The translations under genes were made by a program, and so were the position numbers. A stretch of DNA of 40,354 bases from Raillietiella orientalis (Eukaryota), in the NCBI GenBank assembly GCA_036172245.1, contig JAYWIR010000179.1, positions 1 to 40,354 of the forward strand, in the 5' to 3' direction. Position 1 is the stretch's first letter, and each line of letters starts with the position of its first letter. Of this stretch, positions 13,828-35,379 are shown one piece after another. A model generated the notes under the pieces. That model had not been told where the DNA came from, made no database searches, and saw nothing but the letters and a program-made list of their open reading frames with translations.

Positions 13828-13858
13828 AATAAACGCCCCGGCGAAATCCGAGTGAAAA
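13828..13858 (+). terminator. 3' terminal AATAAA + hairpin of B
   Basis: AATAAA CG CCCCGG CGAAAT CCGAG T GAAAA. Confidence 0.8.
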
Positions 13859-14783
13859 TCGAACGCCTTGTGGAGATCGACTGCGAGCCCTAGGGCCCCC
13901 TTCCCTGCCCGGGGGTCCCTTCCCAGCCCGGCTGGCGGCCCCAATGTGGGGTTGCCGACTTTCCCTATCCCTTTCTTTTCTCTTCTCTGTAGGTGCACCC
14001 ATGTGCTTGCGAAGAAGAGGTTGGCATCCATACTTCGCCTGGGAACAGCATAATTCTTCTCCGGGCTAATTACGGATTCTGCCACCTGCCCCAGACGCGA
14101 AGCCCATAGCCCTGCGATCAACTTGACGTAAGTATTCACGATCGTGATCGGACGCAAGTTCTTTAAATTCCTGAGGTCTCCCCCTTTCGGAAGGAGCCTC
14201 ACTGTGGCTGACCGAAAGGAGGCGGGAACATCGCCTTAGTCTCGGATCAGCCTGATCAACTTAAGCAGCAGGGGTGCCAGCTCTTCCGCGAAGCTCTGAA
14301 AGAACTCCGCGGGCAAGCCGTCTTCCCCTGGAGCTTTACGTCTCTTGAGCCTTTTGATACCGGCGAGAATTTCGCCGGTGTTAAAAGGCTTGTCGAGGCT
14401 TTCCATCTCCTCCTCCCCTATTGCCGAGCGCCATCCGGAAGCAAGCGCCGAGAGGCGTTTCGATCCGGGGGCTCCCTGGCGTAAAGGGAGGAATAGAAAC
14501 TCCGCACGAGATGCCGTACCGACGCCGGGGACGAAAATTCCCGGCCCTGGTCGTCCAGCAAGCTGGCCGACCCGGATTGCCAGGTTTGGCGTTCGGCCCT
14601 GGCGCGGTACTCGGCCAGGCGACGGACATAAGGGGTTCTCTCGTACCTACGAGCCTGTAAATAGGCCCGATGGTTGCGAGCACCCTAGCGGAATCCGGGG
14701 GGCAGGCGATCCAGGGGGAACTGCTCACAGAACTCGCGGACCGATTTCTTAAAAAGGTCCCAGTCCTGGAGATTCCGGAGCGT
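13859..14783 (-). pseudogene. Element A ORF2 piece 3 (linker and RT N-terminal half)
   Basis: TLRNLQDWD...KRRKAPGEDGLPAEF...LLPKGGDLRNLKNLRPITIVN...AVDLHKAFD, bounded by the TSDs of D and B. Confidence 0.88.
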
Positions 14784-14788
14784 CGAGC

Positions 14789-14795
14789 GGACGTG
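14789..14795 (+). promoter_or_regulatory. DPE-like RGACGTG motif at the 5' end of D
   Basis: GGACGTG 5 nt inside the end. Confidence 0.55.
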
Positions 14796-14865
14796 TCTTT
14801 TCGTTGCTCCTGAGTTTCATTTCGGTATGTGCTTGTGCGTGGTGTGGGTGGAGGAGTAGGCAGAA

Positions 14866-16524
14866 ATGCTTGATACCACCAACGGTGAGTATCCGGGGGA
14901 GATGACGTCATTGCCCCCGGAGCAGATGGAGGTGGGGGCTCCCGCATCAGTGGAGGCTCCCGCCAGCACGGATGCGCCCCCGGCCCTACCCAGGGCTTGG
15001 AACGCCATGGCTGCGGCACCTACGCCAGCGGCTATGGCGGAAATGCCCGCTTCTCTGGAGGAGGGGTATAACCCACCCCTTCTATATAAGGTAGGCGGTT
15101 TATATTCTCCCGAGAACGCGCGCGCCTTTTCGTGGGCGATGCGCGTTCTCGGTGTACAAAAAGAGGAGCTTCTGTCTATGTCCGTCAGAAGCGGGGGTCA
15201 ATTTGTGGAAGTTATCTGCAAGGAGGCAACTCTTGCCCAGAGACTTCTGCGAACCCCCGTAATTATGGGCAGCCGGAGGCTTCTTCCAATTACTGAAGAC
15301 CGGTCGGTGATTATTCACCTGACCGGTATCACGTTCCGGATGACGAAGGAGGGCCTCCGGAACGAATTAGAAAAATTTGCAACTGTCCACGCGCTGTGGG
15401 GTAAGCCTACTCCTTTTCTTGATTACGACGGGGTGCTTGGCGGCCTGGGTGCAGCGCGAGTGACGGTTCGCGAAGGATGAGAGTTTCCCCACAAACTCAC
15501 CGTCAACGGTGAATCCGTTGACGTGTGGTGCGTGGGTAAACCCAAGTTTTGCAGCTGCTGCAGCAGCTGTGGTCACCTTAAAATGAGGTGTCCGAGCGTG
15601 CAGTGCCAGCACTGCAAACAAGCGGGGCACACCCGTCTGGTGTGCCCCCAAAACACAGTCCGCGTCGTGTCCGCGAAAAACGCGAGAAAGCGCGCGGCTA
15701 AAAAGAGGAAAAAACTGGCGGCTCGTGCTGCTGCTAAGGAGGTCACTTCCGCCACCAAGGCGAAGGCCAGCCCCGAGACCTTGGCGAAAAACGCGGAAAA
15801 GGTCGAGGGCGAGGGTCAAGAGCCAGCGTGGCAGAAGGTCGACCCCAAGAAAAACTCCCCTAAGAAGGGAAAGAACGTGGCGAAACGGAGCGAAACCGCT
15901 CCGCGCCGCGAAAAAACCAAAAGCTACTGCGTCGTTGTAGAGCGGATTGCCGCCATCGACGAATGCGGCGCTAAAGAACTCGCTGCTGCCCCTGCACAAC
16001 CCTCCGTTGACAAAGTCAACAAGGAGGGGAGCGAGGCGGCGGCGTCCGTCATCGAGCCCACGCTCGATGACGTCGCCTTCAAGCGCGCCGCGGAGGAGCT
16101 GGCTGCCTCGTTGCAGCCGGCCGCCCCCAAGGCTGGCAAGAAGACTGTCAGGCGTCCGGCTTCCCCTCAGGAGTCGGCCACTTCCGACCTCGAGGTGAAA
16201 GCCGGAAACACAGCATATATCTCCTCGGCACCCCGCAAAAAGGCAGGACGAAAGTCCACAATGCCCCGGAAGATCGTCTCCCCCGACGAAGGGGAAGAGA
16301 TGGCTTCCGGCTGCGAGGGTGCGATAAGCGTGGGAAACTCACGGGACCCGTCTCCCGAGACAATCCCACGCTCCGGCACGGAGGGGATGGAGGTGGTGGA
16401 GGCCGAACAGGAACCCCAGGCGCCTGAAGAGGCCTCCGTCCTCGTTCCCATGGTCCTCGTACCGATGGACCTTTCCTACACCTGCTCCGCGGCAGGTGTC
16501 GCGACGCCACTTTCCCAGCCATAA
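14866..16524 (+). pseudogene. Element D ORF1 (zinc-knuckle protein), single in-frame TGA at 15478
   Basis: ORFs 14866..15480 and 15523..16524 are in the same frame. Contains CSCCSSCGHLKMRC and CQHCKQAGHTRLVC, and ends in a TAATG overlap. Confidence 0.88.
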
Positions 16525-19500
16525 TGCCGAGAATCGCCTCTCGCCGTCGTCTTCTGATCGCCTGTTGGAATGTGAACGGGCTAAGCGACGACGAGAAGAG
16601 GCGTGACGTGGCCGCCACCCTGGCATCCTTCGATCTGGTGCTGCTGCAGGAGATCCACGTGATCTCCGCAGATCAAGCCCGGGAGATCGAACGGATCTCG
16701 GGTGAGCGGCTGTTGTGGCGTTGCGGCACCGCGAAATCAAGCGGTGTCGCCTTCCTGCTTCGGCCAGCCATCGAGACCGCAATTAAGGACGTTCGGTTCG
16801 ATGACGCAGGTCGCGTCGGTCAGCTGACTCTCAGCTGGTCCGACTCTATCGACCTGGTCGTCACCAACCTATACGCTCCTAGCGGAAACAACGCCTTGAG
16901 GGCGAAAGCAAGAAGGGAATTCTACCTTGCCCTGAGACGCGATTGGCTGACCGATGCAGGAGTTCGCAAAGCGCACCTTATCGCAGGTGATTTCAACCTG
17001 CGCCTGCTTTCAGGTGCTCCGGATACACTGAACGTCCGCGTCAACGAGTTGTACGCAGAAATGAACACGCGCAATTTGTTGGCCGGGGGCACGGCCATGG
17101 AAAGCAGCATCGATCACCTGTACCTTGATCAGCACCTATGCTCTCGGGTGGGCAGGCGCGGCAAGGTACCATCCGAGCTGTAAGACCATGGTCGGATCAT
17201 GTTCGAAGTGCGTCCGCGCGATAAGCGCCTTCCTCGTCAGCGTGGCGTCTGCCAGGGGACTGGCTGAGGTTTCCCGACGCGGCGGAGCACCTCCGCGCGT
17301 TTATTTGGAGCTTCAGGATGCAGACACTTCAGAACTGGGACCGCTTTAAGCGGTCGGTCCAGGAGTTCTGCGATCAGTTCCCCCTGCATCGCCTACCTGC
17401 GGGCTTTGGGAAGGGGCCGCGTAACGAAAGGTGCTATCTTCAGGCCCGACGTTACGCGAGAACCCACGACATGCGCAGGTTAACAGAGTATCGAGCGGGA
17501 GCCGAGAGGGAAGCCTGGCAATCCGGGTTCGCCAGCTTGCTGGACGACCAGGGCCGGGAGCTCTCGGTTCCCGCTCAGAAACGCGGGATAGTGAGGAAAT
17601 TTTGCTCCTCCCTGTACGCCAGGGCGCCTCCAAAGCGAGACGTCTCACGACTTCTGCTTCCGGAAGGTGCTCCAGCGATCGGGGAGGAGGAGAAAAGAAG
17701 CCTCGACGAGCCTTTCACGATGGACGAGATCCTCTCGGCCATCGGAAAGCTCAAAAGGCGGAAGGCTCCAGGGGAGGACGGCCTGCCTGCGGAGTTTTAT
17801 CAAACTTTCGCGGCAGAGCTTACTTCCCTGGTACATCAGCTCACATTGCTGATCCGTGAAACAGGTGACGTTCCCACTTCGTTTCGTTCAGCAAAGGTGC
17901 GACTCCTCCCGAAGGAAGGAGACCTAAGGAGCATGAACAACTGGCGTCCCATCACAATAGTGAATGCGGACGCCGAGTTGATAGCCATGCTGTGGGCAGA
18001 GCGTTTGGGACGGGTCGCCAACATCTTCATCAGCTCGGAACAGACATATGCTGTTCCCAAGCGAAGTATGGAGGCGAAACTGTTCCACGCTTCCACATGG
18101 TTAGAGCTCCAACAAGGGAGGAGCATAATAAGCAACCGGAATTCCGATGCGTCCGTCGGTGGGGGACGGGATGGTCGGGAGGGGAGAAAAGCCCTCGCGT
18201 TCGCAGTCGATTTTCATAAAGCATTCGATTACCTCGAACAGAATCTCCTTTTGGGGCTTCGGGAACACTTGGGCTTCCCGGCCTCTTTGCTGGCCTACCT
18301 GCGCTCCAGCTGGTGCGACGCGCTTATTAATGTTTTTTTTAGTGTATCCACCGTGTACGGCGTACCGGTGCGACGCGGCATACGGCAGGGAGACAGCCTC
18401 AGCCCCTTGCTCTTCAGCGCCTATTTCGAATTGGTGCTGAGTGCGTACAGGGAGACTCTGGCGCACCTGCCGTGCGATTGTCCCGGTACGCCTGCGGTTT
18501 CGGCGTACGCGGACGACCTTCTGCTGCTGCTGCCTATGTCCACCCCGGCTGCGGCGGTCGAGGAGTTCTTCGACCTGCTGAGTCGGGGAACAGGACTGAC
18601 GGTGAACAGGGCGAAGTCGTCCGTAATGCCAGTCTGAGCGGCGTGGGCAGGGTAGCAGGACTGGGTCCGTTTGGGGATCCGCACGGTGAGGTACTTCAAG
18701 TACCTTGGTGTGCCGTTGGTGGACTACTCTCCTGCGGAAGCGTGGTCCGGCTGCCTTCAGATGGCTCAGGCGGCGATCGGCCCGTTCCAGGACGGCAGGA
18801 TCTACCTGCAGGAACGGGCCGCGGCGTGGAACGCGTTTGCGGCACCCTTCCTTCGCCCCTTGCTTTTTGTTTGCCCCCCCTCAGCGGAGTCAAAGAAGAG
18901 GACGAAGGACCTCCTAAGGATCGCCCTTTAAGGCAGAGGGAGGCCCCAAGTCCGTCTTTCGAACTTGTGCGCTCCTCGTCCGGATGGTGGTCTGGGTCTC
19001 CTGACGTTGGAGCGGCTGGAGCTACAGCTCCAGTTCCGAGTTGTTGCCTTTATGGCAGAAAATTGGTGCACCCCTTGGTGCCTCCCTGCACGTCTCCTCT
19101 TCGAGCGGGAGACAGGCAATGCGGGACTCTCGTCCTACTTTGCACTCCGAAGCCCCATCTGCCACTGCGGACTTCAACTTCGGAGGGCGGCCAAGCTCGT
19201 GAAGAACAACTCGGCGCGGATCCTCGTACGCCCCGCGAACGGTCCTGCCTGGTTGCAGGAAACCGTCCGCACGTGAGCGATGATTCAGGAGCAGAGCCCG
19301 CAACACGAGCAAATAGCTCTGTTCGGGCCGCACGCCCGCCGCACGCTCCGAGAAAGCATCGAGAATCCCCGAAGGAGAGCGTGGGCACAAAGAACCTCCC
19401 TTGCTGCGGTACTGCCTACCCTACTGGAACATCTGGGCAGCGACGTCGCGGCACAATGGGAGGTTACTTTCCAGATCGCCAGCAGGGCAAAGAAGATCGG

Positions 19501-19668
19501 GGATTGAAGAACGGGTCAGCTCTCCAACGCTGCGACCCCGAGGACCACCCCAAATGGACTCTTGCGCTGGAGAGAGCAACTGGATGTTCCTGAGGAACAT
19601 CTCGAGAGGCCCCCGGTGCTCATGGACTCGCGCACCCTCCCTATGAAATGGCAACAGTCGGCACTGCT
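16524..19668 (+). pseudogene. Element D ORF2 piece 1 (endonuclease, RT, most of C-terminal region)
   Basis: CWNVNGL, LQEIH, AGDFN; DFHKAFD, RGIRQGDSLSP, YADD. Has several stops and is interrupted by F at KWQQSAL. Confidence 0.9.
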
Positions 19669-19698
19669 TTTACACCCGGATGCGCCGGGGCGTTTATT
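19669..19698 (-). terminator. 3' terminal AATAAA + hairpin of F
   Basis: AATAAA CG CCCCGG CGCAT CCGGG T GTAAA. Confidence 0.8.
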
Positions 19699-19918
19699 TC
19701 TTTAATAAAAAAAAAATAAACAAGCAAGTGTAGGGCTATCGCCCCTACAGTGTTCAGAACATGGTCTTCTGAACTCGCCGATTGGGCAGCACGCAGGCTC
19801 CCAAGGTCCACTCGGCAGCGGAGGGGGAAGGGACGAATAGAAAAAAGCAAAAAGAAAACACTATTTACAAAAGCCGGGAGGGGTTGGGGAAGGGATCACG
19901 TTCCGCTGGAGACGTCCT

Positions 19919-22900
19919 CTACATCCTTTGCAGGATGCCGGCAAGTTCAAACTGCATGTGTCCCAGATGGGTCCATCTGGCTGCCGTCCTCAGGAAGCGC
20001 AGGGCGTAGCACAAGATGTCCCTATCGTTCGGTCCACCAGTGCCGGTGCTCCAAGCTGCTACAATCTCTCGTAGGCAGCAGAGGCCTGCAAGGGCTGCGG
20101 CAGACGAAAGGGCGTCGCGCACGAAGAGGCGCTTTAAAACGTCTCTGGCAGCGTGCAAGGGTGCCCCAACGGCTGTTGCAAAGCGCAACCACAGGGGCCG
20201 GAGGACAACACAGTCAACGAGCAGGTGCGGGAGAGTTTCTCGTTCCCCGCACCTGACACAGTTTGGGTCCACAACCCCCCTCGTCCAATGAGAGCGGCGA
20301 GCGTTGCTGGGGAGTCCCCAGTGCAACACCAGGAACGCCGACACCTGCCACTTTAGGGGGAGGGCCCGAGTATTCCTCAGCACTGGGGGCCACTCGAGTT
20401 CATCCCGCGGGATGCACAGCACCTCGCCCCAGTTCAACAGTCCTCTCGGTGGGGAAACTTGGGATCGCGGCATCAGCAAGCTGACCCGTGGTCCAACCAC
20501 CTTGTTCTTTCTCAGTGTCCCTGATCGTACACCGGACCTCCCACATGGCCGGCTGGCTACTGCCCAGATGTTCCTTGAGGTGGGACAGAGCTGTGGCAAG
20601 GGAGGTCCCCTCAGCCCACGCACTCAAGGCGGGCTGCACGATGATGTCCTGCAGCGAGCGGCTCTTATGATAGGAGTGCAGCATTCGCTGCCGCAACTCC
20701 GGGCTCGCTTCCTCGATCTGGGCCCACGTGCGAAGGCTTTCCTGCAAGCAGGAAGTGCCGTTCGCGGGCCGGCAGGAGATCCAGGTGTTCTTCCTGGTCA
20801 GCTTCGCCACCCGCCGAAGAGCCAGTCCGCAGTGGAACAGGTACCGGCGTTTGCGGCGCGCTAGGAAGGTAGACAGTCCCGCGCAGCCGCCGACTCGCTG
20901 AACCAGGCATCGTGCAGGCTCGCACCAGCTGGCGCTCCACAACTTCGACACTAGGGCGATTGTTCGGAACTGCAGCTGCAGTTCGAGGCGCTCCAGCGTG
21001 AGGAGGCCAAGGTCCCCATCGCGACGAGGGGCGCACAAGTCGTTTCAACGCGCGCGGGGCATTCCTCTGCCCCAGATGGCGATTCTGAGGAGGTCCTTTG
21101 TACGTGTTCTCACACCACGGGGTGGGGGACAAACAAAAAGCAAGGAGCGAAACAGGGGGGCCACGAAAGTGTTCCACAGCACGGCCCGTTCCGGCAAGAA
21201 GAACTTGCCATCCAGGAACGGGCCGATCGCTCTCTCGGCCTTTTGGAGGCAGCAAGACCATTGTTCCGCTGGGGAGTAGTCCCCCAACGGCACACCGAGG
21301 TACTTAAGGTACCGTACCGTGGGGATCCCCAAGCGAGACCAGTCTAGCTGCCCTGCCCACGAGGAACCCACTGCAACCACGGACGACTTTGCTCTGTTCA
21401 CCTCCAGTCCTGTCCCGCGACGCAGCAGCTCGAAAAAGCTTTCGACCGCCGACGCCGGGGTAGACATGGGGAGCAGCAGCAGAAGATCGTCCTCATACGC
21501 CGCCAAGGCCGGTGTACCTGGGCACACGCGCGGCAGGCGACCAAGAGTCTCCCTGCATGCCCTCAGCACCAACTCGAAGTAGGTGCTGAAGAGCAAGGGG
21601 CTCAAGCTATCACCCTGCCGTATCCCGCGGCGCACCGGCACACCGAACACGTTCCTTCCCCTGAAAGAAATGTTGGTCAGCGCGTCGCGCCAGCAAGAGC
21701 GCAGAAAGGCCAATAAGGAGGCCGGGAAGCACAAGCGCTCCAGAAGCTCCAGCAGGAGCTCCTGGTCGACACTGTCGAATGCTTTCCGCAAATCGACAGC
21801 GACTGCGAGGGCCCCTTCTCTCTCCCGACTATCCCGCGAATCACCAGCGGACGTCCCGCAAATCGGGCTGCCGACCTTGTTCCCCCCATTCATTCTGGTT
21901 CTTTGAAGTTCGAACCAGGTGTTCGCGAAGAGCAGGTTGGCGTCCATGCTTCGCCCGGGAACAGCGTAGGTCTCCTCCGGGCTGATGAAGCTTTCCGCCA
22001 CCCGCCCCATTCGCTCCAAACATAGCTTCGCAACCAGCTTGGCGTCCGCGTTCAGTACGGTAATCGGACGTCAATTGCTGAGCTTCCGTTAGTCTCCTCC
22101 TTTTGGTAGGAGACGCATACGTGCCGATCGGAAGGAGGTGGGAACGTCTCCTGTCTCCCGGATCTGCAGCGTTAGCCGCTGCACCAGGGGAGCCAGCTCC
22201 GCTGCGAAGCACTGAAAAAACTCCGCGGGCAGGCCGTCTTCCCCCGGTGACTTCCGCCTTTTGAGCTTCCCAATTGCGGTGATGATTTCACCCATCGTGA
22301 AAGGCTCGTCCAGGCGTACTCTCTCTTCTTCCCCGATCGCCGGGGCACTGTCCGGAAGCAAAAATTGGGAAAATTCCCGGTCCGGAGGCACCCTGGTGTA
22401 CAGGGAAGAATAATAGCCGCGCACTAGGCTACTCACCTCTGCCGGGGCCGAGTGCTCTTGGCCTCCGTCGTCCAGTAGGCTGGGCGACCCCGATTGCCAG
22501 GCCTGCCGCTCGGCCCCGGCTTTAAATTCCGCCAGTATTCGGACGTCTGATGTTCGGGAGTAACGACGGGCCTGCAGGTAAGCCCTATCGTTCCGAACAC
22601 CTTCTCCAAATGCTTTCGGGAGACGGTCCATGGGGAACTGTTGGCAGAACTCTCGCACCGAGACTTTCAAATCGTCCCAGTCGTCGAGCGTCTGCAGGCT
22701 GAAACCTGGCAAGAACGCGCGGAGGTGTTCCGCTGCGCCTGGCTTGGTCAGCCAGTCCCCCGGTAGACGCCACGCCTGCGCGGGGGGCCCACCGTCGCGC
22801 GGGCGAATGACGAGTTCCACACGGGAGTGGTCGGAGACTGCGGACTGTATCTTACCTCGCCTGCCCACGCGACAGCGCTGGTGATCGTCGAGGAAGACGT

Positions 22901-23486
22901 GGTCCACGCTCCGTTCCATCCCGGTATCCCCGGCTAACAAGTTGGATGCGTGCACCGCAGCGCACATCTCGTTAACCGAGGTGGCCTCTGTCCTCCCCGC
23001 ACCTGATAGCAGGCGAATATTAAAATCGCCGGCTATCAGGTGCGCCGTGCGCGCCCCTGCCTCCGACAGCCAGTCGCGCTTGAACGCACGGAAAAACGCC
23101 GTCCGTGCCACGCGCGCGTGACCGCCGCTCGGCGCGTACACGTTCGTGACGACGAGAATGATGGAGTCGGACCACCTGAAGGTGATTTGCCCGACCCGAC
23201 CTGCCTCATCGAAACGAACTTTCCGCACCGCGCGTTGTAAGGCAGGCTTCAGAAGGAAAGCGACCCCGCGCGTACGGCGGTGGCCGCATCGCCACATAAG
23301 CTGACCACCTGCTATCCGTTCGATCTCCCGCGCATGTTCTGCGGAAATCTCATGGATCTCCTGCAGCAGCACGAGGTCGAAGGCTTGCAAGGTGGCAGCT
23401 ATGTCTCGTCTCCTGCCGTCATCGCAAAGCCCGTTGACGTTCCAGCTGGCGATGCGTATTTGACGGCAGGTGGCGAGTCCCGGCAT
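19919..23486 (-). pseudogene. Element F ORF2 (endonuclease, RT, zinc finger) with stops and a YEDD variant of the RT motif
   Basis: 465-aa uninterrupted endonuclease plus linker, then DLRKAFD, RGIRQGD, AYEDD and CVRCGERETLPHLLVDC. Confidence 0.9.
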
Positions 23487-25085
23487 TACTGCTGGGAAAG
23501 TGATGCTGCGTCTCCCGCCTCACCTAGGGGCGGGACGCAGGCTTTCTCCTGTGCGGTGGGGGGCGGCTCGACGACCCCCTCCGTCTCCATCGGCTCCGTC
23601 TCGGCCGATCGTGGGAGTTCAGGACTCGTGTCCATCTCTCCCACGCTCGCCGCACCCTCGTTTCCGGAGGATTCCCCTTCCTCGGAGGAGACGATCCTCC
23701 TCGGGTTACGGATTTTCCTTCCGGTCTTCCTCGGGGGTGCAGATGCGGATGGTGCGTGTCCGGTCTCCGGGTCCGAGTCCGAGGTCCCGGTCCCCTCCTC
23801 TCGGCCGGACGTCGAACGGCCTTCTTCCCGACCTTTGCGGGAGGCTGCTGACTGGCGGCGAGCTCGGCGGCGGCTTTTGCAAAGCCCGCGTCATCGCGGC
23901 TCTCCCCCTCGCCGCAGCCCTCGGACTCTGTTTGCACAGCGACGGGGCTGTCAGCGTTGTTGCACACGGCAACGTCCTGTTCGCACGGCACTTCGGAGTC
24001 TGCAAGGCGCTCCAGTGCGACCGTGCATTTTTTCAGTCCCTGCTTTTTCGCGGGTTTCGCGGTTTTTACAGGGACTTTATTTTTATTATTTACGTCCTTT
24101 TTTTCTTTCTTTTTCTTTGGACTGACCTTTAGCCAGCCAGGCTCTTCTCCTTCCACCTCGGTTGCCTGCGTTTCTGCAGACGGGGTGGTCGGGATGCCCT
24201 TTTTGGCTGGCACCGGGTCAACCGTATTTTCAGACGGCGGCCTGGTCTTGCCAGGCTTCTTGCTCGCGTTCGTGCCGCTCACGGCAGCAGGCGGCGCGCG
24301 CGAAGTCTTTTTGGGGCACACTTCTTCCGTGTGCCCGATTGCCTCGCACTTGCGGCAGGTGATGTTGGGGCAGCGTTTCTTCACGTGCCCCGTACCATCA
24401 CAAAACGCACAGTATTTGGGTTTCCCCAGATACCAGAAGTCGACAGAATCTCCGTCGACTACTAGTTTATGGGGAACCCCAATGTCCTTATTCACAGTCA
24501 CACGTGCCGCGGCGAGTCCGCTCAGGAGTCCGTCATAAGTACGGAACCTGTTGGGCTTCAGCCACAGCGCGTGTACGTTCCGAATTTGCTGAGTTCAGCC
24601 CTGACGGCGCTCGGTGACATCGGCACGGTGATTCCACGGAGGTGGACAACTATTGAGTTGTCCACCGGGACAGGGAAGATCTGGCGGCCCTCGACCCTGA
24701 CGGGGGTTCGCAGCAGTCTTTGCGCCAACCCTGCTTCTTTGCAGGTCAACTCGACATGCTGTCCCCCGCTGCGGATAAAGAGATCCAGCAGATCCTCCTT
24801 GTTAACGTTCAAACGGTGGAGCTCCTTCTCGAAGGAGCGCGCCACATGGTCATCAAACACCCGGCCTACCTTATACAGCAGACTCGGGTTGTAGTTGTAG
24901 GCCTTGTAGGCCTGGGCCTCGGCGATGGCCGCTGCAGATGGCGCGACGACCGCGGCGCTGTAGTCCGTCGCCGGCGGGGGGGACGGAGCTTCCGGGGCAG
25001 GTGCCTTTATCTCCATGGGTACGGGGGACGTTCGCCCGGCCCCCACCCTACATTCACTAGTGGCGGGATCAGGCATTTCTGCCAT
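23486..25085 (-). pseudogene. Element F ORF1 (zinc-knuckle protein), frameshifted
   Basis: MAEMPDPATSEC...; CAFCDGTGHVKKRC and CRKCEAIGHTEEVC; TAATG overlap at 23484-23488. Confidence 0.85.
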
Positions 25086-25149: not shown

Positions 25150-25156
25150 CACGTCT
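25150..25156 (-). promoter_or_regulatory. DPE-like RGACGTG motif at the 5' end of F
   Basis: AGACGTG 4 nt inside the end. Confidence 0.55.
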
Positions 25157-25160
25157 GACC

Positions 25161-25608: not shown

Positions 25609-25790
25609 TCCCTTCCCGCTCCCTCCCTGATTTTTGTTTATTTTTTGTTTTCTTTTTGTTTCGTTCCCCCTCCCCTCTGCTGCCAAGGTCGACCGCGCCT
25701 GTCTGCGCACCGGTAGCCCAACAGGCTACATCTTTCCAGGGCGTGGCTAACTACTGGTCCAGTCACAGATTGTATAGGTTTATTCGTGAG

Positions 25791-25820
25791 AATAAACGTC
25801 CCGGCGCACCCGGGTTTCAA
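25791..25820 (+). terminator. 3' terminal AATAAA + hairpin of D
   Basis: AATAAA CG TCCCGG CGCAC CCGGG T TTCAA. Confidence 0.8.
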
Positions 25821-26163
25821 TGGAGATTCCGGAGCGTGACGCCTCTCAGGTATTCGCGAAGGTGTTCCTTCGCACCTAAGAGTCGCGTCCAGTTCCCCGG
25901 CAGACGCCAATTTCTGGAGGGCGGTCCTTTATCGCGAGGCCGCATCTCGAAAATTAGCCGGGAATGGTCCGACAACGTCGACGCAACCCTTCCCCGTTTG
26001 CCGACCCGTGAACACAGGTCGGCGTCGAGGAAGACGTGGTCGATGCTGCGGACCATTCCTTTCTCACCCGCGAACAAGTTGCGCGCACGCATGGCGGCGC
26101 ACAACTCGTTCATCGCATTCACTTGTGTTACCGGCTCACCTGTTAGTAGGCGGAGATTGAAAT
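25821..26163 (-). pseudogene. Element A ORF2 piece 2 (AP endonuclease C-terminal part)
   Basis: FNLRLL...SIDHVFLD...LSDH...WRLPGNW...GVTLRNL, bounded by the TSDs of E and D. Confidence 0.88.
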
Positions 26164-26193
26164 TTATCACCCGGTCACGCCGGGGCGTTTATT
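26164..26193 (-). terminator. 3' terminal AATAAA + hairpin of E
   Basis: AATAAA CG CCCCGG CGTGA CCGGG T GATAA. Confidence 0.8.
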
Positions 26194-26476
26194 AATAATA
26201 ATAAACTGGTCAGGGACAATGTCCTTGACCAACAGAACGACAGAGAACATATAAAAATTACCGGCACGCAGGCCTGGTAAACAAACCGCTCGCAGCGCGG
26301 AAGGAATGAGGGGAAACAAACAAAAATCAAAAACTGGAGGGAAGGGTAACGGGTTTTTGGTTAGGCTCCGTACTCACGGGGATTTATACGATGAGCACCT
26401 AAAATGTTCCGGAGCCTATGGGGACGCGGGTGTAAAAAGAAAATACAAATTTAGTTTATGGAGGGTAGGGCAATGA

Positions 26477-29400
26477 TCACCGGGCTGGCCGCTGATGAGG
26501 GTGTGTAAACCGGCGGTGTATTGCGGCGAGATTCCTCTTTGTCTCCTCTGTCAAATGAGGCCATCTAGCGGATGCTCCCATGTAGAAGGATGCTTTGCTG
26601 ATTACCTCTTGGTGCTGTCCGTTGATTACCAACGCCTGGCGGACGGAAACTATCGCGCGTATGCAACCGATGGATGCAATCCTTGCGCTTAGTGAAAGCC
26701 CGCTCGGCGTGAAGAATCGTCGCAGCAAGTCTCTTGCGGTGTCCACGGGATGCAATAGTGCTGTTGCCAGCCTACGCCACAGTCCTTGTAGGACACCGCA
26801 GTCCAGAAGTAGGTGCGGAATCGACTCCGTCGATCCGCACCGAACGCAGTTCGCAGACGCATGTCCCCCGGAGTCACGATGCCAACGCTCGTTGCAATGA
26901 AAACCCCAGTGAACGAAAAGCAGCACGGCTTGTTTCCAAGCAAGGGGGAGCAGCGAACTGTCCATACACTGTGGAGGGACTACAAGTTCTTCGGGGGTGA
27001 CAGCAAGTTCTTCTGCCCACCGGAAGAGTCCCTTTGCAGTAACACGAGGAGTGGCGGCGTCCGCCAACTCACTTGTCTTCCAGGTGCCAAGGAGTATGGT
27101 TCTTCCCGCTATCGTGCAGGAAACCTCCCATTTCGCCGGTTGGTAACTGTCGTTTCTTGCCCTGAGGGCAGACAGCGCTGCGGCAAGAGGCGTGGCAGCC
27201 AGGGTAGAAAACTTTACCTCGTCCTGCAGTACTTCTTCCAAGGATCGTGGAAAAAATTGACGCAGGGGGCGAAGATCTTCAGGGCGTATTCCTTGGAACG
27301 CCGCCCAGGATTCAACAGACTCCTGCCGCCAAGCTTCAAAGTTCATTGGGTTGCAGGAGATCCAAGAGTGTGCTTCCAGAAGTGCGGTCAACTGCCGCAA
27401 TGGAAAACCGAAACCCCGCTTCCTGTATTGAGTGCCCGGCAAAAGCGAGAGAAATCCTCCGCTGCCGGCGCATCTCCGCAGGAGGATGCGAGCTGGCACA
27501 CACAGGGGGGATGTCCATAGCTGGGCACACAGTGCCAGCAGTCGGAACTGCACCTGCAGTCCGATTCGCTCCATTGTCAGGATACCCAAACCAGCATCCC
27601 GACGCGGAGCTGAAAAATCTTTAAGGCGGATCCTGGATCTCGCCGGACCCCAGAGAGCGTTCCTGAGCAGGCGCTTAGCCCGCTGTTTTGCCGCATAGGG
27701 GGGATCCAAAACAAAAAACAGGGGACGGAGGAGGGGGGCCACAAATGTGTTCCAAATAGTCGCCCGTTCCTGCAAGGTAAACTTGCCGTTAAAGAACGGG
27801 CTGATGGCCAACTCTGCTTTCTGAAGACAGTCCGCCCACGCTTCGGCTGCGCCGAAAGCGCCCAACGGAACGCCAAGGTACTTAAAGTACCCGCCCGTGG
27901 GGATCCCCAGGCGGATCCAGTCGGACTGCCCCTCCCACGACGTACCCACAGGAACGATCACGCTCTTCTCTCTGTTCACGCTCACGCCCGCTCCCCGACG
28001 AATCAGGTCGAAGAAATCCTCGACACTGGACGCCGGGGTGGACATGGGGAGCAGAAGAAGCAGGTCATCAGCGTAGGCGGCCACGGCAGGCGTTCCCGGG
28101 CAGGAGCTTGGCAAGTGAGACAGCGTCAGCCTGTATGCCCTTAGCACCAACTCAAAGAAGATGCTGAAAAGCAACGGGCTTAAGCTGTCGCCCTGTCGGA
28201 TGCCCCTACGAACGGGAATACCATACACGCGGCAGCCGCTGAAAGTAATGCAGGTTAGCGCGTGGCGCCAGCACGCACGCAAATACAGCAGGAGTTGCGC
28301 CGGGAACCCAAGCCGTTCCATAAGCTCCAAAAGCAGCTTCTGGTTTACGCAGTCGAACGCCTTGTGGAGATCGACCGCGACCGCCAAGGCACCTGGCGTT
28401 GCCTCCTGCCGTCGGCGCCTGTTCTTCTTGCTTGCGGCAGTGACTTTCGCAGCAGCCTGGCTTTGCTGCGCCACAACTTCCTGCAGCTGCATCCATGTAC
28501 GCGCGAAAAGGATGTTCGCCTCCATGGATCGTCCCGGAACCGCGTAGGTTTGTTCCGGGCTCACCACAGATTCCGCGATACTTCCTAACCGCGCAACCCA
28601 CAGCTTGGAAAACAACTTGACGTCCGAGGTCACCAAGGTGATCGGACGCCAGTTGTTAAGTTGACGCAAGTCTCCGCCTTTCGGTAGGAGACGCACCTTC
28701 GCTGAGCGGAAGGAATCCGGGACATTCCCGGATTCACTCATCAGCGTCGCGAGTTTCAGCATCAAGGGAATGAGCTCCACTGCAAAGCACTGATAAAACT
28801 CTGCAGGGAGCCCATCCTCGCCTGGCGCCTTTCGTCTCTTCAGCCCAGCGATTGCGGACGAAAATTCATCCGCCGTGAAGGGCTCGTTGAGACGTTCGCG
28901 TTCCTCCTTGCCGACAACACGAGCATCCTGAAACAGGAGTATCTCAGAAAGAATATCCTCCGTCGGGGATTCCGCGTAGAGCGAGGAGTAGTAGCGTCTC
29001 ACAATGCGGCGTACTTCGGCTGGGGCCAAACATTCCTGGCCCTTGTCGTCCAACAGGCATGCTGCTCCGGACTGCCAGACCTGGCGCTCGGCCCTCGCCT
29101 TGTACTCTGCGAGACGCCCGACATCCGCGCGTCTCTAAAACGTGCGGGCCTGCAGAAAGTCTCTACTGCTGGCCACGCCCTCTCCAAAACCGCGTGGAAG
29201 CCGGTGCAAGGGGATTTGGCAACAGAACTCGCGGACAGATCTTTTGAGATCGTCCCAGTCCGCAAGTTCTTGAATGGCAAAGCCCCGGAGGTATCCACGT
29301 AGATGCTCCGCAGCCTCCGGTTGGCTAAGCCAATCCGCCTGCAGCCTCCAGCTTTGCAACGGAGGCCCCCTGCCTGGCGGAAGGATCTCAAACTCCAACC

Positions 29401-30070
29401 TGTGGTGGTCAGAAAGCTCAGTCAACAATCTTCCTCTCCTACCCACACGCGAATGCAGGTTTTCATCGAGGAAAACGCGATCGAGCGATCTTTCCATTCC
29501 AGGTTCGCTGACCATCAAGTTGGCGGCGTGCACGGACGCGCACATCTCGATGGGCAGCGCGCGCTCCCTCGGGCGGCTCCAATCGTCGGAGAGCAGGCGG
29601 ACGTTGAATTCCCCAGCGACGAGGTGCGTCACTTGGAAGCCGGAGTTGTTGAGCCAGTGGCTCTGCACGTCACCAAAGAAAGCTACTCTTTCTTCGAGGT
29701 AGCGAGAGCCACTCGGCGCATAGACGTTCGTAACGACGAGATCGATGGACTCGGACCACTTGATGACAAGCTGGCCTATCCGTCCGTCGTCATCGAAACG
29801 AACACTACGCACCGCTTCCGCCATTTGTCCTCTTACGAGGAACGCGACGCCGCACGTGTGTGCGCCGCCGCACCGCCAATGTAGCGTTCCGCCTGCGCGC
29901 TCCTCGATTTCGGCTGCCTGCTCGTCGGAGATTACGTGAATCTCCTGCAGCAGCGCGAGGTCGAAAAGGCGCAGGGCGTTGGCTACTAATCGCCTCTTCT
30001 CGTCGTTCTGCAGTCCGTTCACGTTCCAACACGTTACGGACAGACGACGAGAAGACGCGATTCCCCGCAT
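26477..30070 (-). pseudogene. Element E ORF2, ~1197 codons, near-intact (single in-frame TAG at 29135-29137; GDFN changed to GEFN)
   Basis: ORFs 29135..30070 and 26477..29053 are in one frame. Endonuclease, RT (DLHKAFD, RGIRQGD, YADD, KYLG) and CVRC..HLLLDC motifs are present. Confidence 0.93.
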
Positions 30071-31991
30071 TACTGCTGGGAAGGTGGCAGCTTTTTGCTC
30101 GCTTTATCCGGCGAGCAGACGGCGAGCAGCACGACTGGCTGGAGGGGACGGTCGCCACCGTCCTCTGTCGTGCTGCATGCATGTAATGCCTCCACGCCAG
30201 GCTGAACCCCGTCGGGTTTCGTTGAGACTTCGCGTTGCTTCGCGGCGAGCGTTGCCTGGCTGCCTACTTTTGATCGGCGCGCACACGCTTTCGAACGAGT
30301 TGTCCTCGTCTCGGTGATCGGAACGGCATCCATTTCGGAGTCCGACCGGCGCATGTTCGATCGGGTTTTGGCCTTCCGCGAAGCAGTGACAGGTTCTGCT
30401 GGATTGACAGCTGTCCTGTTTTCGTTTTCCGTCACCAGAGCATCGCTTTTGGTGACGGCTGCTTTCCCGGCGCGCGCGTTTTCAGCGTTCTCACGCGCAG
30501 TTGCACGAGGGACCTTTGCTGAAGTCTTCTTTACTTCATTACGGTTACTCACTTCGCGTGGCGCCGTAAATGGAGATTGTGCTCCATGGCCATCTTTGAA
30601 GCCATCCGCGTCTTTGGACGGGAGCACTTTCGATGGCTCCGACACGCTCGTCATGGACGCTGCTTTCGGAAGGGCTTTTAATCCCTTCGTTGGCATGGCA
30701 TCCGCGCCAGTCGAGAGCTTGCTCTCCGACTGCGACGGCGTGAGATTTTTCTCCGCTTTCGCGGTGTTGGATCGCGACGCGGATTTTATTTTGCCGACTT
30801 TCGAAGTCGACACGGCACAACCCTTCTTACCCGATTTGGGCTTCTCAGCCACTGCAGGAGGTGAAGGAATGGATCTGACGGTACTGGAAATGTTCTTACC
30901 GCCGTTGTCCATTGGCGTCCCTGCCGGTTGCTCGAACTCCGAGAGAGCCGGGCGTGCTTGGGAAGGACAGCTATTGCGCCTAGGGGGACTTACCATTGCC
31001 CCGGATTCCCCGCACCCTTTCTTTTGCGGCTCCCCTGCCGCGAGAGGGGGTGCGCAGGGCTTCGCGTGCGAGGTTTCCTGCTGCTTTGGGGCGAAATTCC
31101 GCCTCGCGTTTTTACCGAATTTCTGCCGTGGGGTCTCCAGGTTTTTCGCAGATTTTTTCTTTTTATCCGCGCTTTGTTTTTTAAAATGGAGCTCCGCGGC
31201 TGCCTTTTTCGCAAAAGATCCGGGCAATTTTTCAATTGGTGCCCGGATAGTTTGCAATAACGGCATTTTCCAGAGGGGCATTTATCCAAACAATGCCCCT
31301 CCTTCCCGCATTGCTTGCACGTTTTTGCTTTGCCCACGAACCACAGGTGAACGACCGTGTCTTTCACCTGTAGTTTGGTGGGCAGCAGACGGCGGTCCGG
31401 CATTGTAAGCCGGACTCCAGCGACTCCGCTGTGTATGGACGGGAAGTCCTTGAGGTTGCTACGCACCCTCCACAGCGCATGGACCGTGGCGAATTTCGCC
31501 AACGCGTTCCGAAGATCAGTATCGGAGATTTCCGACTCGATGTCGAAAATCTCCACCACAAATGAGTCGTCCATGGCGGCCGGGAAGACCTTCTGGCCAC
31601 GGATCGACAACGGGGTGCGCAGCAAGCGTTGCACAAGTGCAGCGTCTTTGCAACGCACCTTGAAATAGCCCATGTCTTTTACGGGCATAATGGCGAAAAG
31701 GTCCTCCTCCCGCACGCCAACACGGGTCAGTTCATCGTTGAACTGATTCCCGTCGCGCGCAGAAAGAAAACCACTCACCTTATATCGGAGAGCAGGTCTA
31801 TAGCCTTGGGCTACGTATGCCCGCAACTCCGACTCGTCGAGTGGTTTCCCTTTGACGGCCGCTGTCGCAGCAACGTCAGCAAAACTCCTCTCCATTGGCG
31901 AGAAAGACGAAGTGGAGGCGGCCGTCGGTTCCGCGATTGCAGATCCGGATGCTGTTCCTCCAACTTCAGTAGCTTCAAGTTGGGTCGACAT
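30070..31991 (-). pseudogene. Element E ORF1 (zinc-knuckle protein), one frameshift in an A-run near 31205
   Basis: Contains CKQCGKEGHCLDKC and CRYCKLSGHQLKNC. Built from ORFs 30990..32015 and 30070..31281, ending in a TAATG overlap. Confidence 0.88.
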
Positions 31992-32056
31992 AGTCGTCAA
32001 AATGTACGACGCCAAGATGAAGCGGATGAAAGCACGGAGACGAGAGCGAAGAAAAA

Positions 32057-32063
32057 CACGTCC
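32057..32063 (-). promoter_or_regulatory. DPE-like RGACGTG motif at the 5' end of E
   Basis: GGACGTG 6 nt inside the end. Confidence 0.55.
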
Positions 32064-32069
32064 GCACTC

Positions 32070-32538
32070 GATTGAAATCTCCCGCTATGAGGTGAGCCTT
32101 CCGCACGCTCGTGTTCGCCAGCCAGTCGCGCTTCAAGGATTCAAGCAGCCTGGTACGGTTGCTGTATCCCTTTTGACCGGTTGGGGCGTACACATTCGTG
32201 ACGATCAGATCGATCGAGTCCGACCAGCCGAGAGTCAGCTGACCGACCCGACCGTCGTCATCGAAGCGCACGCCCTTCACGGCAGCGTCGATGGCCGGCT
32301 TCACGAAGAACGCGACCCCGCAGGTGTTGCGGAGGCCGCATCGCCAATACAGCCGACCCCTTGCGATCGTCTCGATTTCCTGGGCGTCTGCCGCAGTGAT
32401 CACGTGGATCTCCTGCAGCAGCGCCAGGTCGAGCTCACGCAGGGTGTCGGCTGTATCTCGCCTGTTGCCGTCGTCGCGCAGCCCGTTGACGTTCCAACAG
32501 ACCGCGCGAATCCGACGGCGACTGGCGAGCCCAGGTGT
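32070..32538 (-). pseudogene. Element A ORF2 piece 1 (AP endonuclease N-terminal part)
   Basis: Motifs CWNVNGL, LLQEIH, TNVYAP and AHLIAGDFN. The start codon is mutated (TAACA instead of TAATG). Interrupted by E. Confidence 0.88.
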
Positions 32539-34411
32539 TAGTCCAGGGAAAACGGCGATGCGGCGTCCGCCACCTGCTGGGACGGGACGCTAGGTGGAGG
32601 GGGAGGAGGGACAGGTACTGAAGGCACCTTTTCCTCCTCCTCCATCGGTGCCGGCGCGTCGGCCGGATCACCCGCACGTGGAGTCGCGCCTACCTGTTCG
32701 CCTTCCTCCATGTGTTCGGGCTGCTCAGGTTTCGCGACTGCAGGGAGGATTTCACCCCCCTGCTCTCCCTCCTCCATGGGGGTGGCAGACTCGACGGCTT
32801 CCGGACGTGGGTATTCCCCCTCCGGGATTCCCACGCTGCCGCTTCCTTCCGGTTTCTCCTCCTCGCTGGTGGAGGGGAGGCGCCTCCTGGGTTTCTGGGA
32901 CTTGCGTCCCGACTTCCTGGGGGTGCCTCCGAGGAGGAGGATCCGCTTCCGGCCCCCAGGTCGCACTCACCTGCGGGGGCCTTCTTCGTCGGAGCCGACC
33001 TGCGTACGCCCTTGCGCGACGGGGTTTCGCGCTCGGCGAGCGTTGCTGCGAGCTCCTCCGCCGCTTTCTCGAAGGCCGCGTCTTCGCCAGCGGCGACCGT
33101 TGCCGCGGGCTGCTCCGCGACCTTATCGAGCGCGGCGTCCTCGTTGACGGCGAACGTTGCCGCGGGCTCCTCCGCGACTTTATCGAGCGCGGCGTCCTGG
33201 CTGTCGGCGCGCGAGTCTCGCGTCTCACCCTCTACACGTAGATTGGGCTCGTCCACGCGAGTATTCATCGCGTCCGCATCAGCTGTTCCGCGAACATTGC
33301 CGCGGGCGGACTCGGGAGGAACGGCTAAGCGTTCCAGTGCTACCGAGCATTCGTGGAGTTTTTTTTTTGAAAGCGGCGCGGCTTTTTTCTTGTTGCCGGC
33401 AGTTTTCTTCTCCGAATTTTCTTCTATCATCACTTTCTTTTTTTTCTCTTTTCCGGCCTGAACCAGCTGCCAACCCTTCTCCATTCCCGCGTCCACAAGA
33501 GCTATTTCCTCCGACGTCTGTACGGGAGGAAGGGAGGCTGGCAGTTGGGAACGGCCATTTTCGCGAGCTGGTCTCTCTACCAGCTTTCCACGTTTTCCCT
33601 GCGCCCTTTTGGCGGCAGGGGGCAGCGGGGTGGGGCGCTTGGGGCACACGCGCCGAACGTGACCCTTTTCGCCGCATAGGTGGCACACAATGTTCGGGCA
33701 CCTTTTTCGTAGATGCCCTACTGCATTGCAGTAGCCACAAAATTGGCGTTTTCCCACGTACCAGAGGTCCACCGCTTCTTGGCAGACCTCCAGCTTATGG
33801 GGAAGCGCACCACCCTCTTTTACCGTGATACGCGCCGCAGCTTGACCTCCGAAAAGGCTATTGTAGCCTTGGAAAATCGTGGACTTCGGCCACAACGCGT
33901 GCACTTCTCCGTGCTTTTGAAGCTGTTCTCGAACCGCTGACCTCGTCATGCGACTGGAGATCCCAGTGAGATGGACCACCACCGAGCGGTCCATCGTTAT
34001 CGGCAAGATCTTCCGACCATCAACGATCAGCGGGTCGGTGATCAGGTGTCGGGCCAAGGTGATATCCTTGCATAACACCTCGACCCGCTGCCCGCCGCTG
34101 AGGACGCAGAGGCCGTCGAGATCTTTTTCAAAAATATTGGCGTCCTGCAGCGCCTTCGTAAAGGCGCGTGCAGTTCGCCCATCGAAAAGGTTGCCTACCT
34201 TGTAGACTAGCGAGGGTTTATACCCCGCTTTCTTGTAGGCTTCCATCTCGGCCATGGCTTCCACGCTAGGCGCGGCCACCATGGCGCTCCAGGACCTCGG
34301 CGTCGCTGGAGACGATTCCGGGGCGGATGCCCCTGATCCAGTAGGCTGTGGGGACGAACAAGCCTCCATCACGCCTACTTCCATCGCGGTGTCCTCTAGC
34401 AACGCTGCCAT
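32538..34411 (-). pseudogene. Element A ORF1 (gag-like nucleic-acid-binding protein, two CCHC knuckles), one frameshift near 32950
   Basis: Contains CGYCNAVGHLRKRC and CHLCGEKGHVRRVC. Built from ORFs 32690..34435 and 32538..32966; the stop abuts the ORF2 start. Confidence 0.85.
33040..33198 (-). repeat. 57-bp (19-aa) tandem repeat, about 2.7 units, inside A ORF1
   Basis: DAALDKVAEEPAATFAVNE / DAALDKVAEQPAATVAAGE / DAAFEKAAEELAAT. Confidence 0.8.
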
Positions 34412-34492
34412 CGGACACCGACGATGTGCACGCACAAATCACTTAAGAAGAAAAAACACTCGCTTTGCCACGCAGGCGGAGCGCAGAAAAAG

Positions 34493-34499
34493 CACGTCC
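34493..34499 (-). promoter_or_regulatory. DPE-like RGACGTG motif at the 5' end of A
   Basis: GGACGTG about 11 nt inside the end. Confidence 0.55.
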
Positions 34500-34510
34500 G
34501 CTCTCCACAG

Positions 34511-35348
34511 CGGGGATTCGGCGGGGAGCTGCGGAACGACCAGGCATACCACGACGCCCGTCTTTACTCTAGGACTCCCGACGTTCGACGCCTGGCGGAG
34601 TATAAAGCTGGGGCTGAGCGACAGACCTGGCAATCCGGGTCGCACAGCTTGCTGGACCCCCAAGGCCAGGAATGCTCAGGTCCGGCGAAAATAAACCGCA
34701 TTTTACGGAACTATTACTCCTCCTTGTACGCGCGTAGAACAACAGAGCGCGCCGTGGCGCAGCGCTTGCTGCCGCAAGGCGCCCCGCGCTGCAGGAGGAG
34801 CAGGCACATCAACTCGAGGACACTTTCTCGATGGCGGAGATCATCTTCACCATTGGAAAGCTCAGAAAGAGGAAAACACCAGATGAAGAAGGTCTGCCCG
34901 CGAAGTTCTACCAATGCTTCGTGGCGGAGCTGGCCCCCCTGGTGCATCGGCTTCGCATGCTGATCCGAGAACAAGGGTACGTCCCCAAATCGTTCCGGTT
35001 AGCTAGAGTACGTCCTCTGCCGTAAGGAGGAGACAATCGCAACGTAGGCAACTAACGTCTTATCACAGTAGTGAATGTGGATGCGAAGTTGCTTGTCAAG
35101 CTTTGGGCTGAGCGACTGGGACGGGTAGCGGATTCCGTGGTGAGTCCGGAGCAGATATACGCTGTTCTCGAAAAAAGCATGGAGGCCAAACTGTTCCTCG
35201 CCAGTACATGGTGGCTGTTTCAACAAAGCGAAGACCAGGGAGGTCAAGAGAATCCTGGATTCTTTTCTGACTAGTGAGGGGACGCCCATCATGGAAGAGT
35301 TGCGCCCGATGCCCTTGCGGTTGCAGTGGATCTGCGTAAAGCGTTTGA
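34511..35348 (+). pseudogene. Host element Z, ORF2 fragment 2 (linker and RT N-terminal half up to DLRKAFD), degenerate
   Basis: Resumes where fragment 1 stops (RGFGGELRNDQAYHDARLYSRTPDVRRLAEY...), then KRKTPDEEGLPAKFYQ, VNVDAKLLVK, SPEQIY and AVDLRKAFD, with several stops and frameshifts. It is cut by the 3' end of G. Confidence 0.85.
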
Positions 35349-35379
35349 TTTTTACCCGGATTACCTCGGGTCGTTTATT
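35349..35379 (-). terminator. 3' terminal AATAAA + hairpin of G
   Basis: AATAAA CG ACCCG AGGTAATC CGGGT AAAAA. Confidence 0.8.

Follow-up and report, generated by a model that had tools for sequence, protein, structure and literature searches.

Two related LINEs end at the same nucleotide of the KAFD reverse transcriptase motif in two different resident LINEs

In the 40,354-nt stretch of DNA analyzed here (the window), two L1-like LINEs, B and G, each have their 3' end antisense in the KAFD motif of another LINE, as found by direct reading. Does the shared position reflect a target preference, or was it brought about by chance, by copying of DNA between loci, or by misassembly? On balance, we favor the view that B and G are separate target-primed insertions by one L1-like APE-type lineage and that the shared nucleotide reflects a target preference.

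The whole window is one nest of LINEs (Table 1). The 3' ends (7/7) and a tblastn map together resolved eight elements within 40 kb, nested up to four deep. The outermost host, Z, contains G and F/A, a 34-kb interrupted element of which A is one part; F/A in turn contains H, D with E inside it, and B with C inside it. ORF2 residues are numbered after H, in which KAFD occupies aa 581-584. Element H has APE-type endonuclease and RT matches (PF03372, E 6e-10; PF00078, E 6e-22), and tblastn aligns B, G, A, and Z to this ORF2 as well. Among Atlas clusters, those nearest bear the name LINE-1 ORF2 and contain RVT_1 and zf-RVT; matches to named sequences are at most 30% identical. The full-length 5' motif is present on 6/6 5' ends visible in the window, and AATAAA lies 22-25 nt upstream of the end in every element. 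Flanking duplications match at 17/17 positions for D, 11/11 for E, 8/8 for H, and 13/14 for B, which thus carries the hallmarks of APE-type non-LTR insertion, a target-site duplication (14 bp) and an A-rich 3' end (AAAA). A twin-priming inversion was considered for the head-to-head arrangement of C and B and ruled out, as C is complete in itself and belongs to a different family, its RT being 67% alike to that of B. Likewise, 3' transduction of host sequence was ruled out, because both hosts keep their halves in register across the insertions and B is flanked by a duplication of its own.

Table 1. Pieces of the LINE nest and their positions in the window
Feature	Position	Strand	Description
Z left piece	24..240	+	outermost host LINE; ORF2 aa ~236-306; translation ...VREFCEEFPVYCLPLGFDV; tblastn map
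F/A 3' piece	241..2350	-	ORF2 aa ~565-1202, 3' UTR, end ...GGGTGGCAA
Left copy of B target duplication	2337-2350		within F/A 3' piece
B left piece	2351..4284	+	5' end, ORF1, ORF2 aa 1-~62
C	4285..10209	-	full-length LINE of another family; nested in B, EN aa ~57-62
B right piece	10210..13858	+	ORF2 aa ~57 to end, 3' UTR
B right-piece terminus	AATAAA at 13828		AATAAA, stem-loop, AAAA tail
Target site in A	13859..13872	-	right copy of B 14-bp duplication; CACAAGGCGTTCGA (H-K-A-F-D)
A	13859..14783	-	middle piece of F/A; ORF2 aa ~275-584; KAFD end at B junction
D	14784..25820	+	full-length LINE, nearest relative of B; in F/A at aa ~275-280, perfect 17-bp duplication
E	19668-25160	-	inside D at aa ~1060, 11-bp duplication
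F/A piece	25821..26162	-	ORF2 aa ~165-280
H	26163..32069	-	full-length LINE; in F/A at aa ~166, sense orientation, 8-bp duplication
F/A 5' piece	32070..34505	-	5' end GAGAGCGGACGTGC, ORF1, ORF2 aa 1-167
Z right piece	34506..35348	+	ORF2 aa ~304-584, end ...CGTAAAGCGTTTGA (R-K-A-F-D) at G junction
G	35349..39001	-	3' end ...GGGTAAAAA, 3' UTR, ORF2 back to aa ~57
C'	39002..40354	+	copy of C 5' part; same place in G as C in B; runs off window

The 3' junction strings given in a preliminary description of this DNA were each found as a single exact occurrence, at 13850-13872 (+) for B, with the junction at 13858|13859, and at 35335-35357 (-) for G, with the junction at 35349|35348. Past the B terminus, ...GAGTGAAAA, the sequence continues as TCGAACGCCTTGTG, which reads H-K-A-F-D(GA) in antisense; past the G terminus, ...GGGTAAAAA, it continues as TCAAACGCTTTACG, which reads R-K-A-F-D(GA) in antisense. 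Direct reading thus agrees with the claim that the two junctions share an identical codon position, namely after the GA of the KAFD Asp codon. For B, the target-site duplication (TCGAACCCCTTGTG on the left, TCGAACGCCTTGTG on the right) pins the junction down, whereas the G junction has a 1-nt ambiguity because the A run could take in the third base of the GAT codon. The 14-nt targets of B and G match at 10 and differ at 4 of 14 bases, and the poly-A tails are also unlike (AAAA in B, AAAAA in G). The B/G-type 3' terminus consists of AATAAACG, a stem-loop, and TCCGRGTRAAAA. The 5' junction of G is beyond base 40354, and its target duplication is not visible in the window. By eye alone, the target seems to resemble the element's own 3' end (AAACGCC...ATC), a likeness on which no argument here draws.

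How readily would chance produce such a pair? When seven independent insertions were simulated, a pair no more than 1 nt apart and in the same orientation arose in 0.5% of trials over the whole element, in 1.7% within ORF2, and in 2.8% when insertion was confined to sites with T after the nick. These figures make it unlikely that a merely regional preference, for resident LINE DNA, mostly in ORF2 and mostly antisense, combined with a weak nick preference, put two of seven insertions at one nucleotide by coincidence. No null model predicts, moreover, that the coinciding pair should also be the closest relatives among the inserts. Coincidence draws support from the scatter of the nest overall, the remaining five insertions lying at five distinct positions (ORF2 aa ~57, ~166, ~275-280, ~305, and ~1060), and from the smaller target space that follows from 7/7 insertions in ORF2 and 6/7 in antisense. 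At the other insertions in the window, the nick contexts have nothing in common except a weak A just before the nick. No nick consensus was found, and high nuclease specificity therefore does not characterize the superfamily. In addition, the KAFD coincidence was selected post hoc, by scanning the whole window. A contig from sequencing run X1 speaks the other way. Here an F/A-type 3' end lies antisense in a B-like host (...LHRLPPGFG), no more than 1 nt from the F/A site in Z (...LPLGFD), which hints that a second lineage, F/A, also reuses its own site. As a candidate nuclease motif, GTTYGA before the nick was rejected, as it fits only B and G among the eight junctions read.

The preliminary description had read B and G as separate insertions in different hosts by a subfamily specific for one of the most conserved RT motifs. 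Its first part stands. Site specificity of the B/G subfamily would go further than two copies can show, and D, the next relative in the window (~70-76% alike), sits elsewhere (ORF2 aa ~275-280). KAFD is conserved at the protein level, but its 20-nt span ranks only 938 of 4106 in nucleotide conservation among the families. Both B/G-type 3' ends in the window (2/2) occupy KAFD, and 6/8 KAFD sites in the window are without an insertion. Judged from these two copies, a real target preference of the B/G lineage is likely.

The two hosts have separate histories. A belongs to F/A, which has Z as its host; therefore, A and Z cannot be duplicates of each other. Their nucleotides are 62-65% alike, in keeping with the substantial divergence reported earlier, and D and E are closer (69-71%) to A, and to Z, than A is to Z. 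Between A and Z, dN/dS is 0.30 (pS 0.60, pN 0.28; 144 codons, 64% alike), the codon signature of divergence under purifying selection.

B and G are mutual nearest relatives over their last 1400 nt, with identities per quarter of 0.89, 0.85, 0.80, and 0.75; D is the next relative (0.61-0.72). The likeness of 70-80% first estimated by eye holds for the last ~400 bases (3' UTRs, 74-75%) and fails upstream, where it is 85% and then 95-100%. For the 3' parts, dN/dS is 0.40 (322 codons; dS 0.36, dN 0.145; Fisher p 2e-7), and part of the divergence therefore arose in active lineages; so the 3' parts of B and G come from distinct active sources. With hosts and insert 3' parts thus differing in their histories, target preference is the most likely reason for the shared nucleotide.

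The 5' parts of B and G present a different picture. Positions 8857-12650 and 40354-36555 are 95-100% alike over 3.8 kb, including nested C and, within B, positions 10210-~12650; the C/B junction is 100% identical between both copies. The mismatch density is ~1.6% over 9257-12057, 5-10% to 12657, and 10-31% to 13857, compared with ~37% in the hosts flanking B and G. The two elements are inverted relative to each other and 21 kb apart, and the near-identical block points to a later, gene-conversion-like exchange between them. As this block shows DNA exchange between the two loci, their full independence is not to be presumed.

Could exchange also account for the shared junction? This would require a single KAFD insertion copied between paralogous hosts by gene conversion or break repair, with patchy conversions leaving a 63-100% mosaic. 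The exchange just described is real, and the duplication around C is only 11/16 alike, so B is indeed a mosaic. However, homology flanking the site is just 62-65%, a poor recombination substrate, and identity drops stepwise toward the junction rather than being high across it. The duplication is of A type on both sides of B, whereas copying from the Z locus would leave sequence of Z type or no duplication at all. Finally, the dS of 0.36 and dN/dS of 0.40 in the 3' parts are unlike the neutral decay of a dead copied insert. We therefore regard such copying as quite improbable. A simple duplication, hinted at by an 89% inverted blastn match, is ruled out by the stepwise identity profile and nest topology, which, together with the A/Z dN/dS of ~0.30, uphold the earlier view that no simple recent duplication explains the locus.

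Misjoined reads of LINE copies are a very improbable source of either junction, of both, or of the near-identical block, since matching duplications flank every insertion with both ends in view and host pieces are in register at the amino acid level, unlike chimeric joins. This holds even though the region consists wholly of repeats 65-100% similar and only 16 of 667 X1 contigs are at least 99% alike on 1-20000, so that X1 gave the junctions no independent confirmation. Those 667 contigs were matched to 1-20000 at 80% likeness and are mostly <90% alike; 0.17 of sampled words were present in the run. Among the X1 matches listed (6 of 440 loose ends, 15 of 39 joints), no contig bridging 13858 was found. 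Two X1 joints, 6414>13859 and 2341>13874, were rejected as junctions, as they read as uninterrupted paralogous RT genes.

Under the favored reading, separate insertions with a target preference, each insertion would be antisense and would follow the GA in the catalytic Asp codon of RT motif A, each time in a different resident LINE. The junctions place the nick on the host sense strand after ...GCGTTCGA, with priming on the short A tail that comes after the conserved stem-loop at the 3' end; the second nick was 14 bp away in B. In R1/R2/Tx1-type elements, the address is read by the ORF2 protein, through its endonuclease or a DNA-binding surface. The ORF2 protein of B and G may likewise act as a sequence-selective endonuclease or DNA-binding surface. 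As a second route, the nicked host strand may pair with the flank on read-through transcripts of KAFD-resident copies, by which the site would be inherited without a specific nuclease. AATAAA near every end means that most transcripts probably stop there, which weakens the read-through idea. Afterward, the inverted copies would have exchanged DNA, a gene-conversion-like tract homogenizing C and the 5' part of B and G.

A broader proposal is possible but doubtful. Each LINE lineage would keep a heritable address in its rivals' ORF2, and the cluster would grow by antisense homing that disables the competitor's enzyme, the addresses perhaps being passed on by read-through flank pairing and not by a specific nuclease. 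The address would be the KAFD catalytic Asp codon for B/G and the LPxGFG codons at aa ~305 for F/A, and that of C may be EN aa ~57-62.

Site-specific LINEs are known to target rDNA, telomeres, small RNA genes, microsatellites, and one DNA transposon. Sequence-specific APE-type examples are R1Bm in 28S rDNA and Tx1L, of the L1 clade, in the DNA transposon Tx1D. The B/G case resembles R1Bm and Tx1L in having one defined sequence in a multicopy target, a fixed junction, and a short duplication, and the Tx1 target is also a transposon. It is unlike them in that the proposed target codes for an RT catalytic motif in rival LINEs of the same superfamily, and in that the two targets are only 10/14 bases alike, any specificity being drawn from two copies. 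Homing endonuclease genes, inteins, and group II introns lodge in conserved active-site codons, and the preliminary description drew an analogy to homing elements. Common to both would be a selfish element that occupies codons under the tightest constraint, from which the target can hardly escape by mutation. Unlike homing elements, B and G would insert by target-primed reverse transcription with a duplication; they lie antisense, destroy the host gene, and cannot be spliced out. In the window there were 0 Rfam matches at gathering score to a ribozyme or intron family, and the ORFs are LINE ORF1 and ORF2.

The layout of the nest is Zepp-like, with copies nested in one another; the likeness is one of cluster layout and GC. 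Zepp and ZeppL LINE clusters are described in the green algae Coccomyxa and Chlamydomonas, and both kinds of cluster are GC-rich (Zepp 61%, the window 55-63%) (PMC3446292, PMC8226300, PMC9940879). Unlike the Zepp arrays, which the relevant passage of PMC8226300 gives as mostly 5'-truncated 3' ends, the window has full-length 5' ends wherever one is visible (6/6). Zepp insertion is described as aimed at "existing copies", and the passages on it in PMC3446292, PMC8226300, and PMC9940879 name no fixed intra-element address. If true, a LINE with its address in the RT catalytic motif of its fellow LINEs would parasitize other parasites. It would also offer a concrete mechanism by which self-targeting builds up centromere-like clusters made of LINEs only, as in Zepp arrays. 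Inheritance of the address through transcript flanks, if it occurs, would represent a novel route to target specificity in retrotransposons.

Beyond the window, a metagenome scan with the shared 3' end motif gave 31 loci, of which 0/31 were similar to the window in protein or DNA, so that all are chance matches. Relatives of the H RT ORF were sought in genome contigs (47 pattern matches, 0 relatives) and in viral contigs (0 loci). A protein search returned one close relative, a 619-aa metagenome protein with 57% identity, all other matches being at most 30% identical.

The nested elements were resolved with a tblastn map and a reading of every junction, using as the ruler for positions the ORF2 of one of them, H (1209 aa, with KAFD, the RT motif A carrying the catalytic Asp, at aa 581-584). 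The window contains LINE retrotransposons of a single superfamily and nothing else (GC 55-63%). No Rfam family was found in it, indicating that no group II intron is present. The H ORF2 carries the Pfam domains Exo_endo_phos and RVT_1, the closest feature-space clusters bear the name LINE-1 ORF2, and of six frames scanned from the ORF1 regions, those of F/A and C contain a CCHC knuckle. A search of 5.8 billion sequences returned a single close protein relative, a metagenome protein with 57% identity, the rest sharing 30% or less. A GAGCGGACGTGTYTTT-like 5' end is common to all elements, as is a 3' end in which AATAAA is followed by a 5-bp stem-loop (CCCGG/CCGGG; G-U variants in F/A) and 2-5 A; exactly seven such 3' ends are present. 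None of the six visible 5' ends is truncated, which is uncommon among L1-like elements. Each of the seven insertions lies within the ORF2 of its host and none in ORF1 or UTRs, and six are antisense to the host, a bias that is suggestive, though the numbers are few.

Elements, shared ends, and divergence in the window
Feature	Positions	Strand	Value or remark
Z, outermost host LINE	24-240 and 34506-35348	+	
F/A, one element inserted in Z at aa ~305	241-34505	-	
A, middle piece of F/A	13859-14783		
H, in F/A at aa ~166	26163-32069		8-bp duplication
D, in F/A at aa ~275-280	14784-25820		perfect 17-bp duplication
E, in D at aa ~1060	19668-25160		11-bp duplication
B, in F/A	2351-13858		carries C
C, in B at EN (endonuclease region) aa ~57-62	4285-10209		
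G, in Z	35349-39001	-	carries C' at same place as C in B
Shared 3' ends	259, 4303, 13828, 19686, 25791, 26181, 35367		
Shared 5' end motif	2362, 14787, 32052, 34488		
B/G divergence (B coordinates)	9257-12057		about 1.6%
B/G divergence (B coordinates)	12057-12657		5-10%
B/G divergence (B coordinates)	12657-13457		10-24%
B/G divergence (B coordinates)	3' UTR, to 13857		24-31%
A/Z host divergence			about 37%

The preliminary description had placed the related copies B and G at the same nucleotide of KAFD in two hosts, and both junctions, read directly, bear this out. The 3' end of B, ...GAGTGAAAA, abuts TCGAACGCCTTGTG; that of G, ...GGGTAAAAA, adjoins TCAAACGCTTTACG, which represents the R-K-A-F-D codons of Z. 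Each junction string occurs once in the window, the two positions agree within 1 nt, and the two targets share 10 of their 14 bases. The 14 bases at the 3' flank of B recur with one mismatch at 2337-2350, ahead of its 5' end. Therefore, B inserted cleanly and at full length, and its 14-bp duplication spans the H-K-A-F-D codons of A. The nick for B falls on the host sense strand after ...TTCGA. The two sites in Z that are occupied (190-240 and 35330-35348) share the sense-strand sequence G-N-G-TTTGAT, as GGGGTTTGATG at aa ~305 and as AGCGTTTGAT at KAFD, and relative to this motif their nicks differ by 1-2 nt; the remaining window junctions do not fit it.

A single 5.8-kb inverted duplication, raised by the first blastn match at 89% identity, is ruled out for the junctions by the stepwise identity of the two copies. 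The hosts are not copies of each other, because A belongs to an element inserted in Z; compared over the 144 codons before KAFD, A and Z give pS 0.60, pN 0.28, and dN/dS 0.30, and both resemble D and E more than they resemble one another. B and G are closest to each other across the 3' coding part but differ there by dS 0.36 and dN 0.145, dN/dS 0.40 (322 codons; Fisher p 2e-7), so that part of their divergence arose during the activity of their sources. Moreover, the duplication of B is A-type on both sides and is not explained by copying from the Z locus. From these comparisons, we consider it likely that B and G are two separate retrotransposition events. The earlier statement that simple recent duplication is insufficient, made from visibly diverged 3' UTRs and differing host proteins, thus holds for the junctions, but the loci did exchange DNA later.

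This exchange, which the alignments mark as real, is seen in an inverted block (8857-~12650 versus 40354-36555) that is 95-100% alike and joins the 5' parts of C and B in one copy and C' and G in the other. At the C/B junction the two copies show 100% identity, which drops stepwise towards both ends of the block, a pattern that fits gene-conversion-like exchange between inverted copies 21 kb apart. The right end of the tract is near 12650. C and C' diverge by 5.3% at 8857-9256 and 1.6% at 9257-10256, which apparently puts the left end within C; if so, a C-type element was present at both loci before the exchange. B and G may thus each have carried a C-type element at one EN site (aa ~57-62) by then, which would make it another reused site. 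The duplication flanking C in B (4269-4284 versus 10210-10225) is just 11/16 alike, indicating that the left and right pieces of B come from different B-type alleles. The best conserved 20-nt stretch among six families (ORF2 aa ~50, LLQEIH; mean pairwise identity 0.91), e.g. 4245-4265 in B, lies directly upstream of the C insertion site in B and G.

A shared site could also arise by chance. We simulated seven independent insertions, counting as coincidence any pair within 1 nt in the same orientation; this occurred in 0.5% of cases over the whole element in both orientations, 1.7% within ORF2, and 2.8% when only sites at which a T follows the nick were allowed. The two inserts that coincide are also more closely related than any other pair. 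Strict specificity is opposed by the sample of two copies, by D, their next relative, which inserted elsewhere, by six of the eight KAFD sites in the window being empty, by the nick contexts of the other window insertions, which have no more in common than a weak A ahead of the nick, and by the rank of the KAFD 20-nt window in nucleotide conservation (938 of 4106). The proposal that the B/G subfamily targets KAFD is retained as a site preference of this lineage, the best reading and a moderately probable one.

In passages of PMC3446292, PMC8226300, and PMC9940879, Zepp and ZeppL are described as clusters of LINEs nested in one another that "target existing copies", and no constant position inside the element is given. 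A preprint (10.1101/2025.03.28.645958) gave no further information on target sites. Among the entries listed in a limited literature search for nested or target-specific non-LTR elements, the known targets rDNA, U2, 5S, and telomeres appeared, and none with an RT motif as target.

Both insertions are target-primed and antisense and follow the GA of the Asp codon; the second nick of B is staggered by 14 bp. A putative KAFD address could be read by ORF2p. Alternatively, the nicked host strand might pair with the host flank carried on read-through transcripts from elements that already occupy KAFD; downstream target sequence reportedly has a comparable role in R1Bm. AATAAA lies 22-25 nt ahead of every 3' end, so most transcripts probably lack read-through.

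Finally, we placed contigs of X1, a public sequencing run holding related sequence, on 1-20000 at 80% likeness (667 contigs, mostly <90% alike). Among the 15 of 39 joints and 6 of 440 loose ends listed, the joints 2341>13874 (12 letters between) and 6414>13859 read as paralogous RT genes without interruption and thus represent empty KAFD sites. In one contig, a B-like host sequence that runs to 10930, with a further 20 letters (...LHRLPPGFG), is followed by an antisense 3' end of F/A type (from 241). The host differs from Z, yet the junction falls within 1 nt of the position homologous to that of F/A in Z (...LPLGFD). This single contig, of which 20 letters were read, suggests that the F/A lineage too reuses its site.
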